Shown one piece after another: positions 46,780 through 51,905 of a stretch of DNA of 64,000 nucleotides; position 1 is the first letter of the stretch; each line of letters begins with the position of its first letter. Origin of the DNA: Octopus vulgaris (Eukaryota); contig OX597814.1 in NCBI GenBank assembly GCA_951406725.2, positions 51,894,001 to 51,958,000 of the forward strand, written 5' to 3'. The notes under the pieces are model-generated. The model did no database searches. It was not told the origin of the DNA and saw only the letters and a list, made by a program, of their open reading frames with translations. A program made the position numbers and the translations under genes.

Positions 46780-49217
46780 CAACAACACCTTTAATTTTAT
46801 GCTCTCCAATGCCATTTACTCAAAATGGAAGATATAATTCCTGGAGGACTGGGTCGATGCCCATCCAAACCACATCATTTTCTTTGTCCTCACTGAAACC
46901 CATCTTAGTAACCTTCACCTGGAAGCCGAGGTGAAAGTTAAAAATTTCAAAGCCATTCGTGCTGATCGTGCTGGCAGAAGAAAGGGTGGGACTGCCATTT
47001 ATGTTCTTGATTCATTCTCAACAGAAGCTATGAACATATTTTCCAATGGATACTGCGAAGCAGTCACTGTATTCAGTCAAACCAACAACTTAAGAGTAGT
47101 TGGGCTCTACAGACCACCCCAAACGCCCCTACCATGCTTCAAGGAATGCCTCAACAACATAAAGTGTTTCATTCAGCAGTGTCAACCTGACAACATTTTA
47201 ATGATGGGAGACTTCAACCTTCCCAGGGTTGACTGGTCTACAAACAGTCTGCCGCCAGGTTCTTCTCCCTCAACCCCTGACAGGGGGGCAGTGGAATCGC
47301 TTCTTGACTTCATGAATGATTTCTTCCTGTCCCAACTGGTGCTCGAACCAACGAGATGTCACAAAAACGTCTTAGACTTAATTTTCCGCAATCACACTGA
47401 TACTATCCACAATATTGCAGTGGAGAAAACCCTACTCTCTGATCATGACATGGTTCTCTGATCTGAGATTTCAACGGTCAAAATGCAAAACAAATGTCAT
47501 CCCTCCTGTTCATACATTTGACACTATGGATTTCCACAATGCAAACTGGGAAGCGATCAATAATGATCTTGCACAAGTCGATTGGTCCTTCACGCACACA
47601 TACACACCCACTAACATCAAAAACATCAAAAAGTCCTGGCAGTCATTTGTAGACACCATTACAAACATATGTGCAAAACACACCCCATTTAAGATCTGCA
47701 AACAAATCTAAGTGTCGAATCCCCAGAAATAGAAAATCTCTCATCAGGAAAATTAAAAGAATCAACAAAAAAATCAACAAGCTGAAATACTGTCAACAGC
47801 AACACACCAACCTGACTGCCATCTCGTCGCTAGAGATTAAAAAACAAACTCCAAAACAACATGATGTCTATCATCAATAGTCAGAGAAGAGCTGAAGAGG
47901 CCTGGGCCATTGAGAAGATCAAACTCAATCCCAAAGTGTTCTTTTCATTTGCAAAAAAACACAGAGTCACTGGTTCTACTGTTGGCCCTCTGATTGATGA
48001 AAATGGTACTCTCCAAGACAATGCCAAAACCATGGGAGAGATATTGCAGAAACAATATTGCTCTGTTTTCAGCAATCCTGATATGACTGATCTGGGCTGT
48101 ATCAGTGATGTTACTCCCCAATATACTTTATCGGACAAAACCTTTGGCGCTCCTGATGTCTTAGCAGCAATAAAGGAAATGAAGCATAATTCAGCAGTAG
48201 GTCCCGTAGGTTCCCTGCTTGTATCTTGAAGATGTGTCAACACCAACTTGCACCCCCTCTAGCCAATCTGTGGCGGAACTCACTGGATGCAGGATATATA
48301 CCAGAAGACCTTCTATCCCAGTCTGCTGTCCCAGTTTTCAAAAAGGAAACAAATCGCTTGCCGTGAATTACCGTCCAATCTCACTCACCTCTCACATCAT
48401 TAAGGTATTTGAGAGAGTGCTGAGATCGCGTATAACTCACTTCCTTGAGAGTCATAATATGCTGAATTCCAACCAGCATGGATTTCGTAATGGAAGAGAT
48501 TGCCTGACGCAGCTACTGCATCATTTTGATGACATTTTGAGAGCCTTGATTTCAGCAAGGCCTTTGACAGAGTTGATCATAAGATCCTTTTGAGAAAACT
48601 GTCCAATATTGGTGTCACTGGAAAGCTGCTGCAGTGGATCAAGTGCTTCCTGTCTAACAGAACCCAACATGTTGTAGTCAAATCCAGCCCAGCCAGGAGT
48701 CAAATCCAGCCCAGCCAAAGTCAGCAGTGGTGTCCCACAAGGCACTGTGTTGGGCCCACTTCTTTTCATCATCTACTTAAATGATATTACTGACACCATC
48801 AAACAAAGTAACATCAGAACCTTCGCTGATAATTCCAAGCTCCAGAAGGTCATCAATGGCGTGGATGGCCGAATAAGCCTTCAGTCAGACCTACTGGCTG
48901 TTGTCCAATGAGCGGAAAGGAACAACATGTTGCTAAACGAAGACAAATTTGAACTGATCCACTTTGGAAGGGAGGACGCTCTGAAACTCCCATACACCCT
49001 TCCTTCTGGAGAAATTCTCATGGCATCTAACAACATCAGACACTTGGGAGTAACAGTGGGCAACAACATAAGCTGGGCTACACATATAAGCAGCAAAGTT
49101 GACATGGCCCGCAGAATGTGTTCCTGGATTCTCAGAACCTTCCAGTCGAGAGATTCCCACACCATTATCCTTCTCTTCCCCACTTTTGCCCGACCCCACC
49201 TTGAATACTGCTGTCCA
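46780..49217 (+). mobile_element. CR1-group LINE ORF2 (APE endonuclease and RT), frameshifted and 3'-truncated
   Basis: RADR..GGTAIYV, LYRPP, MGDFNLP, LDLIF, SDH (APE); NYRPISLTS, QHGFR, DFSKAFD, GVPQGTVLGPLLF, FADN, HLGV, RPHLEYC (RT). Confidence 0.93.
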
Positions 49218-49490
49218 ATATCAGTGTCAATCGACACTGGAAAAAGTATATGTATTTGTGAAAGGAGCTGACTTCTCGTCGACAACCATGATTGTCACAC
49301 GCTGGTGATAGGTAAACACCTTTAAACTCGAGTCTGTGTGTATCATGAGTTGAAGACGGGGAGGACTGACTTCCAGATACTCACAGATAGTGTGTCTATA
49401 GCCAGCTGGAGGAGATATCTTCCTGGGGCTACAAACTACAGTAGCATCCACCCTTAGGGGTTAGCCATATTCAAATGGCAAATATGCGTC
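49218..49490. repeat. Unclassified GC-richer repeat fragment
   Basis: Abruptly replaces the CR1 RT and abuts the (TA/GATA)n tract. Possibly the 5' end of a second Hero-like copy (inference). Confidence 0.35.
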
Positions 49491-49548: not shown

Positions 49549-49574
49549 TATATATATATAGATAGATATATATA

Positions 49575-50117
49575 TCTTGCAAACAACTTGCACATGCAAG
49601 TGCTACCAGTTAAAAGCTCCATATATCGGAAGCTAGCAAGTGTATGGGGTCATCAGGAGAGAATGCGCGCCGTTTCGGGGCCTACCTCTCGACGGCATCA
49701 ATGCGCACCGGCCCCCCTCACTGATATGAGGCCCCGCTTGCTAGATCAGCTGGTTATGAAGAACTCAATATACTTCTAGCCATCGCTCATCGTCTCTTTT
49801 TACCCAAACCAGTGGCTAGCCTTCTCCACTGTAGATTGGATATCAGTCATGGTGGTATTGACTTTACGATGAGTTAGGCCTAACGATAACAACAGTCGTC
49901 TCACGCTGTGTCCTACAAACCCTCTACATCCGACTTTGATAGGAAAATATTCCGCTTTCCAGCCTACGTCTTCACACTCCTCGAGGAGGTTTTCCTAATG
50001 GTTTAATTTTCGAGCTCGAGCGGCGTCCATATTATCTTCGTGAGGAACCGTTAGCTCGACTATATTTACAACTTTCTTTATTTCACACCACATCAAAATA
50101 TCTGGTTTTTTCGAAAC
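49575..50117 (-). mobile_element. RLE-type (Hero/NeSL/R2-like) non-LTR retrotransposon 3' fragment in a microsatellite
   Basis: KPDILMW..KKVVNIVELTVPHEDN..ARARK..LEEC...GWKAEYFPIKVGCRGF...ASHW-WVKRDDERWLEVY* is a PD-(D/E)xK endonuclease C-terminus. Stop at 49765-49767, 3' UTR to about 49575, (TA)/(GATA)n on both sides. Confidence 0.85.
49633..49744 (-). ncRNA. Candidate permuted/pseudoknotted hammerhead-like ribozyme in the RLE retrotransposon 3' UTR
   Basis: CUAGCAAG-c-GGGG-CCUCA-uaucag-UGAGG-GGGGCC-g-GUGCGC-auugau-GCCGU-C-GAGAGG-ua-GGCCCC-GAA-ACGGC-GCGCAU-UCUCUC-CUGAUGA-CCCC-auaca-CUUGCUAG. Every capitalised arm has a complementary partner and the core motifs GUC, GAAA and CUGAUGA are intact. 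Confidence 0.6.
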
Positions 50118-50609
50118 TATATATATAGATATATAGATATATAGATAGATAGATATCTCACTCACACACATACATACACACTCACACACACACATACACA
50201 CACACATATATATACACACATATATAATGAGAATATGGATTGTGTATAAATGGTTTTGAATGTCCCACTTGTCATACCAATATAGTTTTTTTCTTCCACC
50301 AATGCTATTGTTTTGTAGATTATATCTTTTATGCAATGGGTTTCTAGATGTTCAGTTATTTATGGTGTGAATGGTTTTTGGCTTCCTGTGTAGCTGTAGC
50401 TAGTTTTTGTGCTATAGAGAAGCATTTGCAGATTAAGGAAGTTTTTAGATCTGAGATTGAACAACCACAACTTAAAGTACATTTCTCAAGGCTGACATAA
50501 CATTTCAAAAGTAAATATACAGAGAAAAGAACAAATGTGAAGGAAAAAGTTTAGGCTATTTGTTGTCTTACTAAATAAATTGAAACATAAATGAACTAAA
50601 TTTACATGG

Positions 50610-51905
50610 TACTATAAAAAGAAAACTACATCACATATCAATTCAGCATCTAGTCTTCTTCAAAGTAGTCCTTTGCTGAAGCCACACACTTTACCCAGCA
50701 GCATTTCCCTGGATGGAAGCATTTCTGGAACTTCATTTCTGGGATAGGGAGCAGCTGCCTCATCACATTTTCTTGGATTACTTTGGCATCTCAAAACCTT
50801 ATTCCTTTCAAGTGGGATTTGACTTTTGGAAAGACGGAAATGTTACAAGGGGCGAGATCTGGGGAATATGCTAGTTGTAGGACATGGGAAATGTTGTACT
50901 TGACCAAAAACTGCTGCACAAGCTGTGCTGAATGGGTAGGTTCACTGTCATGGTGGAGCTGCCATTCACCAGATGCATGCAATTCTGCCCTTTTCTGACA
51001 AACAACATCCCACAAATGCTGTAACATGTTATGGTAATACTCCTTGTTTACTGACTAACCTGGTGGAACATACACATGATGAACAATACCCCTGTAGTCG
51101 AAGAAAACTGTCAACATTGTCTTCCTTTTGCTTCACCTCAGTCATGTTTTCTTTGATGTTGGAGAGGTTGGGGGTCTTCCACAGTGAAGACTGAGCCTTT
51201 GTTTCAGGGTTATAGCCATAGACCCACAATTCATCACCTGTTATGACCATTTTCAAAAAGTTTTCATCTTCCTTGACACAGCCAAGGAGATCCTGTGCAA
51301 CTAAAACCTGATCTTATTTCAGGTTGAGTGAAAGCAGTTTTGGAACAAACTTGGCAAACACACATCTCAAACCCAAATCTTAACTAGAAATGAACTGAAC
51401 TGAACTATAGTTAATATTCACATCCTCTGGCAACTCATGCACAACAATTTGATGGTCTTTACAAACAGCTGCATAGACATCAGTGATGTTTTTACCAGTT
51501 CTGCTGGTTGTGGGTCTCCAAGAACAAGCAGTGTCATTGTTGACATTTTGTCAGTCATCTTGGAAACATTTAAACCACTCATCAATCATTCCTCCACATA
51601 CAGTCTCTGCAACTTTGTATAGGTCTCTGTCCAGGTGTCACCAAGCCTTTTGCAAAATTTGATGCAGATTCTCTGATCAATTTTCTCTGCCATAGTCACT
51701 GATGAAACCCCTCTAGTGTGGTGGGATGACCACATTCTACACACTTTACCTCCAAACATTACTATAAATGATAGAAGTGAATAAGAATGTTATAACTTAG
51801 TGTGCATGTGAATCAAAGTTTAAGGTCAGTTTGTGCCAAGCTGCTTCACTATACTTTAGCTTTGATACCATAGCAACATTCCTGATACTTTTTGATTAGA
51901 CCTTG
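50610..51905 (-). mobile_element. Second defective mariner copy, same family as 37857-39145
   Basis: VITGDELWVYGYNPETKAQSSLWK, WQLHHD, YSPDLAPC. Right TIR ctgatactttttgattagacc; left end eroded. Confidence 0.88.

Follow-up and report, generated by a model that had tools for sequence, protein, structure and literature searches.

A hammerhead-like motif in the 3' UTR of a HERO retrotransposon of Octopus vulgaris is probably an active ribozyme of a new topology, which the element would use to produce a circular RNA as its template. The window, by which we mean the whole 64,000-nt stretch of DNA that was analyzed, contains this motif. Judging from genomic copies of the element, cleavage at the predicted site (49691/49690) is very likely, and the RNA, once cut, would quite likely be closed into a circle.

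Results

We found all the core motifs and helices that an earlier sequence-only reading had drawn on the minus strand at 49633-49744 (Table 1), and a script verified all pairs in the seven helices. The motif begins 20 nt after the stop codon of the element, at 49767-49765, as that reading had said. The key bases are H17 at C49691, GAAA at 49676-49673 and CUGAUGA at 49656-49650, and the predicted cut falls between 49691 and 49690. The G10.1-C11.1 pair, previously given as absent, is present, as G49715 of the bridging strand pairs with C49677 directly before GAAA. The GGGGCC/GGCCCC helix is stem II and carries this pair, so that the abutting helices stand as they were drawn while the claim that they replace stem II does not. 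A stem II that continues directly after A9, between CUGAUGA and GAAA, was rejected, since direct pairing amounted to 0 bp in 35 of 38 cores and 2 bp in the other 3. The GUGCGC/GCGCAU helix had been taken for an extension of stem III; it corresponds instead to the 'I' helix of type SGC, which ties stems I and II. In the junction, the strand after CUGAnGA forms helix a with a second upstream strand, and a hairpin occupies the remaining gap, so that no base is left unpaired.

A descriptor of the core plus the perfect four-way junction had one match in the 64-kb window. Applied to both strands of 100 equally long first-order Markov mimics, it gave 0 full and 9 core-only matches, a control of specificity only, since the descriptor was derived from the observed motif. 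Folding by minimum free energy (MFE; z = -0.38) favored a rod with the core paired; because pseudoknot-free folding cannot draw the two pseudoknots, it misses the proposed fold and is uninformative. Rfam had no family matching the motif, only microsatellite-driven miRNA/snoRNA matches below gathering, and gave 0 matches to 15 related loci. We noted that the side-hairpin loop (49721-49726) is complementary over 6 bp to CUGAUG of the core, also in the close relatives L124 and L125 with changed sequence. Such pairing could possibly form an inhibitory fold, or off-switch.

Table 1. Features of the HERO copy and its hammerhead-like motif, in window coordinates.
Feature	Position	Strand	Remarks	Evidence
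5'-truncated HERO non-LTR retrotransposon copy, 544 nt	49575..50118	-	End of RLE domain (premature stop, frameshift) and intact 3' UTR; between TA/TATC microsatellites	
ORF stop codon TGA of the element	49765..49767	-	Motif begins 20 nt later	Read from sequence
Closing helix, 5' strand	49737..49744	-	Partner 49640-49633	Scripted pair check
Helix a, 5' strand GGGG	49732..49735	-	Open arm of four-way junction; partner CCCC 49649-49646 right after A9	Scripted pair check; covariation
Side hairpin CCUCA-UAUCAG-UGAGG	49716..49731	-	Fourth junction arm	Scripted pair check
Stem II, 10.x strand GGGGCC	49710..49715	-	G49715 = G10.1	Scripted pair check; 37-core comparison
'I' helix, 5' strand GUGCGC	49703..49708	-	Partner GCGCAU 49668-49663	Scripted pair check; covariation (helix 4); PMC10085705 (available part)
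Stem III, 5' strand, and GUC triplet	49691..49696	-		Scripted pair check
Stem I, 1.x strand GAGAGG	49685..49690	-	Partner UCUCUC 49662-49657; first base is start of retroposed 116-nt products	Scripted pair check; boundary searches
Block G: stem II 11.x strand GGCCCC, GAAA, stem III 3' strand CGGC	49669..49682	-		Scripted pair check
Stem I 2.x strand, CUGAUGA core, helix a 3' strand CCCC	49646..49662	-		Scripted pair check
Closing helix, 3' strand	49633..49640	-		Scripted pair check
Fixed 3' end of element (reverse-transcription start)	49572..49575	-	116 nt after cut; at tandem loci runs straight into own 5' UTR	

The assignment of the host to a HERO (RLE) element was borne out by its full-length units of 3738 nt (L032, L034), which carry a single ORF of 1112-1175 aa. 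The ORF has an N-terminal zinc finger, an RT (RVT_1 match), a CCHC motif and a PD..D/ExK-type endonuclease; the zinc-finger and endonuclease motifs were read by eye and are presumptive. R2 proteins were the best PDB matches of the ORF (E 1e-17), and in a by-eye comparison the RT motifs closely resembled those of HERO-1_BF and HEROTn (available part of the PMC7650587 supplement). According to the accessible text of PMC4640811, the HERO clade is mostly non-site-specific, and some members target microsatellites. Named homologues were from fish and lancelets. The octopus family is young and abundant: there were 497 exact copies of the 28-nt core genome-wide and 2202 candidates at first look, and the 40 that were scored were 99-100% identical. 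In 30 older copies the motif consensus was unchanged from the 5' strand of the closing helix to the middle of its 3' strand, and both flanks differed. A second HERO family in the same genome (L111, L112, L116, L120, L122), with ~63% DNA identity over the RT region, has the same motif and the same tandem junction. The HERO copy of the window adjoins a decayed APE-RT non-LTR element at 46838-49271 (+), by its motifs presumably CR1/L2-like, and a broken transposase remnant that we take to be mariner-like lies at ~50670-51710 (-).

We compared 86 HERO-like loci, namely the best 80 of 174 confirmed metagenome loci, five loci of the second octopus family and the window. In this set (best 80 of 174 metagenome loci plus 6) the core was present in 38 of 86 loci and the perfect four-way junction in 31, with differing helix sequences; shuffling of the upstream 100 nt gave the junction in 143 of 3100 trials. 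The core was absent from 48 of these 86 loci, most of them members of a separate 28-row clade or short contigs, and the core-less L141 and L173 still showed head-to-tail junctions. Covariation among homologues had been named by the sequence-only reading as a check on the motif. In a plain, unfitted MAFFT alignment of 13 members, to which the window does not belong, 30 of 38 pairs were compensatory, in all six helices including both pseudoknotted ones, and helix a (helix 1 of the alignment) was compensatory in 9 of 9 pairs. Paired cells made up 89.8% of this alignment as compared to 30-47% when it was slid (0/500 shuffles). Alignment A4 was fitted to the model and is hence secondary evidence (26 of 28 pairs compensatory), and the MAFFT alignments A2 and A5, in which the mixing of short- and long-hairpin groups misaligned helices, were excluded from the pair counts. 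In the nearest relatives, GGGGCC/GGCCCC of stem II is replaced by GGGCUC/GAGCCC (L124) and GUGUCC/GGACAC (L125).

A relaxed whole-locus scan of the same 86 loci (best 80 of 174 metagenome loci plus 6), at a score cut of 22 that we chose ourselves, identified 40 loci with 37 distinct cores, the upstream helices of L135 and L137 being mis-assigned and L198 and L199 being weak; the reverse strand gave 0 of 86. H17 was C in 17 of the 37 cores, A in 13, U in 7 and G in none, though G was permitted. All four bases were seen at N7, C3-G8 was changed to U-G twice and to U-A once, G10.1-C11.1 was G-C in 35 cores and G-U in 2, and GAAA was invariant. The NUH rule, a free N7 and C3-G8 covariation are rules of hammerhead catalysis, beyond those of folding. 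The variants UUGACAA and UUGAAGA (U3-A8, U3-G8) were found in L136, L152, L127 and L128. A covariance model of the 13 fish-like members found 45 places, with L124 at 8e-4, while the window's own motif was unmatched at E<=1. A C-terminal tree, from which 8 loci with short open frames were left out and in which the deep split was weak (79/90), had the full motifs in a 60-row group; the other 28 rows held only the weak L198/L199 and L196, whose motif lies 1.2 kb downstream. With weak deep support, the window's element grouped with fish and lancelet relatives in this tree. A scan of IMG/VR gave 35 pattern matches, none of which was confirmed.

L141, L146, L173, L182 and others of the 28-row clade had neither a hammerhead core nor an Rfam match, and this clade may use another, undescribed self-cleaving RNA. 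Among 30 distinct motifs (L129-L193), the loop that separates stem III from the 'I' helix was kink-turn-like in 18, and the side-hairpin loop was self-complementary over 6 nt or more in 15, hinting at kissing dimers.

Cleavage of the RNA would be expected to yield some 116-nt insertions, made when reverse transcription begins at the normal 3' end and runs off at the cut. Copies that lack the two bases before the cut were sought by a pattern; it had 10 matches, 8 of which started exactly at G1.1 and ended at the normal 3' end or at most 2 nt from it; 7 of these had unrelated flanks ending in AT and 1 followed an internal fragment. The other 2 matches were substitutions in longer copies, and a control pattern at -6 had 1 match, an internal deletion. 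We also performed a boundary scan open to 17 positions (-4..+13), which gave 32 matches, 30 of them examined. Here the script called 16 truncations, and 7 of these lay at +1. Inspection by eye showed 3 of the 16 to be longer copies that had diverged or been rearranged; of the other 13, 8 started at +1, where ~0.8 per position would be expected if uniform. Both searches together gave 13 distinct loci that start at +1, exactly at the cut that had been predicted after C49691. Structural stalling is an unlikely cause of these starts, since by that point the RT would already have displaced all downstream partner strands. As indirect evidence, the +1 insertions strongly support cleavage in vivo, and the 116-nt insertions would preserve a record of past germ-line cleavage.

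Head-to-tail junctions from 3' to 5' end, which suggest a circular RNA intermediate, had been missed in the sequence-only reading. Each of the 19 exact matches to the element 5' start followed on a 3' end of this element, always at the same junction; the overlaps ranged between 21 nt and ~2 kb, and 16 of the 19 extended past the cut site. Tandem source loci had overlaps of ~1.7 and 2.0 kb, and L034, L032, L035 and L103 were longer than one unit, with two ribozymes around an intact ORF. We also sampled copies by means of an internal 5' segment (116 candidates, of which 40 were scored and 30 used; loci partly shared with the 19). The 5' boundaries of these 30 copies were scattered, 13 crossing the junction and 10 crossing the cut, and none of the 30 stopped at either. 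In all 11 distinct loci the two repeats belonged to a single subfamily, and four of these loci share non-young variants. The first base after the 3' end tracked the junction base of the subfamily (T 16/16; C 10/14; C 25/26), and the 3' flanks matched the 5' start over at least 3 nt, and up to 10 nt, in 52 of 56 cases. The junction was kept in copies ~80% identical and in distant families, and no scar was seen at the cut or at the junction. Head-to-tail signs were detected in 15 of 80 metagenome loci (best 80 of 174), whose short-read contigs may collapse repeats, and in L111. Taken as a DNA record, head-to-tail starts that run through the cut probably point to a re-ligated circular RNA template.

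A 5G/6G difference between repeats at four loci was considered as a linear-precursor marker and dropped as homopolymer noise, because there were 78 exact 5G copies genome-wide, including downstream copies. Run X1, which is only guessed to be RNA, held a 1283-nt contig at depth 76 that closes on itself over the ribozyme, the junction, the 5' UTR and the ORF start; it may be a circle or a genomic tandem array.

Discussion

The proposed cycle would start from a genomic copy longer than one unit with two ribozymes flanking an intact ORF, as seen at L034, L032, L035 and L103. Its read-through transcript would be cut at both ribozymes into a 3.7-kb monomer starting at G1.1, the ends of which would be re-joined by the ribozyme or by a host ligase. 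Priming by the RT-RLE protein would take place internally, at a site 116 nt past the cut, and would use AT-containing targets and short microhomology; the fixed site is seen in the copies, and the mode of priming is presumed. From there RT would pass the re-joined site and usually drop off early, leaving 5'-truncated copies like the one in the window. Occasionally it would go more than once round and regenerate source copies with two ribozymes, a pattern that is seen in the DNA. On cut, unligated RNA it would run off after 116 nt, as in the 13 insertions. The priming site of a doubly cut monomer lies only 116 nt from its 5' end, so full copies would be made only if the ends were re-joined. A circle could thus account for the 116-nt products of unligated RNA, for ordinary truncated copies and for the longer-than-unit copies that renew the two-ribozyme sources.

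The ribozyme might also cut while the templates stay linear. Copies longer than one unit would then come from uncleaved read-through of tandem loci or from precise RT jumps between cut ends, and the cut would serve turnover, release from host transcripts or copy-number control. R2-type RTs do jump between templates, and there are tandem source loci whose overlaps measure ~1.7 and 2.0 kb. Of the hundreds of copies only ~13 have their boundary at the cut, most insertions passing the site uncut, and uncleaved oligomeric templates are described for Penelope in the available text of PMC6765202. However, unless a circle or a jump comes in, the overlap is bound to get shorter; yet both copies of ~80% identity and distant families have retained the junction, and a scar is seen neither at the cut nor at the junction. 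We consider linear templates unlikely. An R2-like role in 5' processing or translation, in which the upstream ribozyme sets the RNA 5' end 116 nt before the 5' UTR, perhaps for cap-independent translation, and the downstream copy stays uncut, would suit the tandem layout, which places the motif upstream of the ORF. R2 uses its 5' ribozyme in this way (PMC13580325 and PMC7650587, available parts), and self-cleavage can promote cap-independent translation (PMC13725137, available part). Long insertions would then be expected to end where the upstream copy is cut. Of 19, however, 16 extend beyond this point and none ends at it, which contradicts a 5'-end role of this kind. We hold it to be improbable as the explanation, though it could be an added function.

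Two further explanations can be given. The 3' UTRs of RLE elements bind RT, and the motif, with its k-turn-like loops (18/30 distinct motifs) and self-complementary hairpin loops of 6 nt or more (15/30), might be a non-catalytic protein-binding scaffold for RT recognition through a k-turn and a palindromic loop, the 116-nt copies being stalls of RT at the structure. This leaves unexplained the NUH rule (G in 0 of 37), the invariant GAAA and the C3-G8 covariation, as well as the stop at a single predicted nucleotide at which the partner strands would already have been displaced by RT, and we find a scaffold quite improbable. A chance arrangement in a GC-rich hairpin would agree with the MFE z-score of -0.38. 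It has against it the 0 full matches in 100 x 64 kb of controls and the covarying homologues in 31 of 86 loci (best 80 of 174 metagenome loci plus 6), and it is refuted by the conservation of the junction, the covariation and the hammerhead rules in 37 cores, which leave chance a negligible probability. A ribozyme that makes a circular template is the reading we adopt in what follows.

The blocks of the motif run S-G-C, with an 'I' helix, and the C-G-S order of types I, II and III (Rfam hammerhead clan) was not found, as the sequence-only reading had noted. Such an order is not without precedent, since site-GAAA-CUGAnGA is the published type SGC (HRIMA-1), for which cleavage was demonstrated (Eckert et al. 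2023; PMC10085705, available part); order alone is thus not new. New is the wiring, in which the chain is opened between A9 and G10.1 and clamped by a perfect four-way junction. In the available part of PMC10085705, CUGAnGA is assumed to be contiguous with stem II ('blocks cannot be interrupted'). The HERO motif has the hammerhead core CUGAnGA/GAAA/NUH, stems I and III, A15.1-U16.1 and a stem II with G10.1-C11.1 next to G12; the core presumably stacks on this stem. With types SGC and CSG, as far as the same part describes them, it shares the site-GAAA-CUGAnGA order, a short linker between stems I and II, two pseudoknots and an extra helix that ties the far sides of stems I and II and abuts stem III. 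Unlike in type SGC, block C comes in two parts, with the 10.x strand placed 5' to the cut site, and the four-way junction closes the gap. It is therefore SGC-like in working, yet lacks an uninterrupted block C and is not filed as SGC. Types SGC and CSG are known almost only from metatranscriptomes, with no SGC from genomes of known organisms in the available part of the paper, whereas the HERO motif sits in chromosomal retrotransposons.

In the open literature, to which subscription journals and Repbase Reports do not belong, no paper was found that connects HERO to hammerheads, to hammerheads with a four-way junction or to circular intermediates. The searchable literature on the HERO clade (HERO-1_BF, HEROTn), with which the element shares its RT motifs, mentions no ribozyme, tandem junction or circular intermediate. 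Related sequences could sit in the supplements of PMC10085705, and tandem HERO copies may have been noted elsewhere. The six listed hammerhead permutations rest on an assumption that the motif violates, which is why patterns derived from the list miss it. If our reading is true, a non-circularly permuted hammerhead is present in chromosomal genomes at hundreds to thousands of copies.

Penelope-like elements have another RT and, in GIY-YIG, another endonuclease than HERO, which combines a HERO RT with an RLE. They are likewise autonomous retroelements with a partial tandem layout, a hammerhead in the repeated end and a proposed circular RNA, but their hammerheads are minimal, of classical types, with slow dimeric cleavage (PMC6765202, available part). 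Retrozymes also have hammerhead-cut monomers, circular RNA and tandem genomic copies, and an internally deleted 1.25-kb HERO unit is similar to them; in contrast to HERO, they are non-coding and non-autonomous and have classical hammerhead types (same part of PMC6765202). Head-to-tail copies spanning two ribozymes, a feature of the retrozyme and Penelope-like mode, were found in HERO. R2 with its 5' HDV-like ribozymes is, like HERO, a single-ORF RT-CCHC-RLE element with a self-cleaving RNA, but the ribozyme is of another class and at the opposite end, R2 is rDNA-specific, and head-to-tail read-through of the cut is undescribed in the R2 literature as far as it was accessible. The available part of a 2026 R2 review (PMC13580325) mentions neither 'hammerhead' nor 'circular'.

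The usual view of non-LTR elements is that priming occurs at the 3' end of linear RNA. In HERO, priming appears to be internal, on a template that continues across its own ends. Extending this with somewhat less assurance, we favor the view that a whole RLE non-LTR clade replicates via a ribozyme-made, protein-coding circular RNA with a fixed internal RT start, its hammerhead having a doubly pseudoknotted topology beyond the six thought possible, perhaps tuned for ligation. The idea of a circular intermediate, proposed for Penelope elements, would become directly testable in an R2 relative. As R2-superfamily proteins are under development for gene insertion, one that possibly accepts circular templates is of practical interest.

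Internally deleted head-to-tail units of ~0.6-1.5 kb occurred at L048, L050, L052, L056 and L058 and in contig 1 of run X1, and are candidates for non-autonomous, retrozyme-like derivatives. In one young copy (L039, G000:C11) the 5' part was inverted, so that two 3' ends face outwards. Finally, the HERO-like 5' UTRs (L034:3085-3300, which is the unit 5' UTR, and L111, L129, L152, L161, L173 and L193) contained repeated GGAAAGAC-type motifs, several as small hairpins, which are possible protein-binding or internal translation signals.
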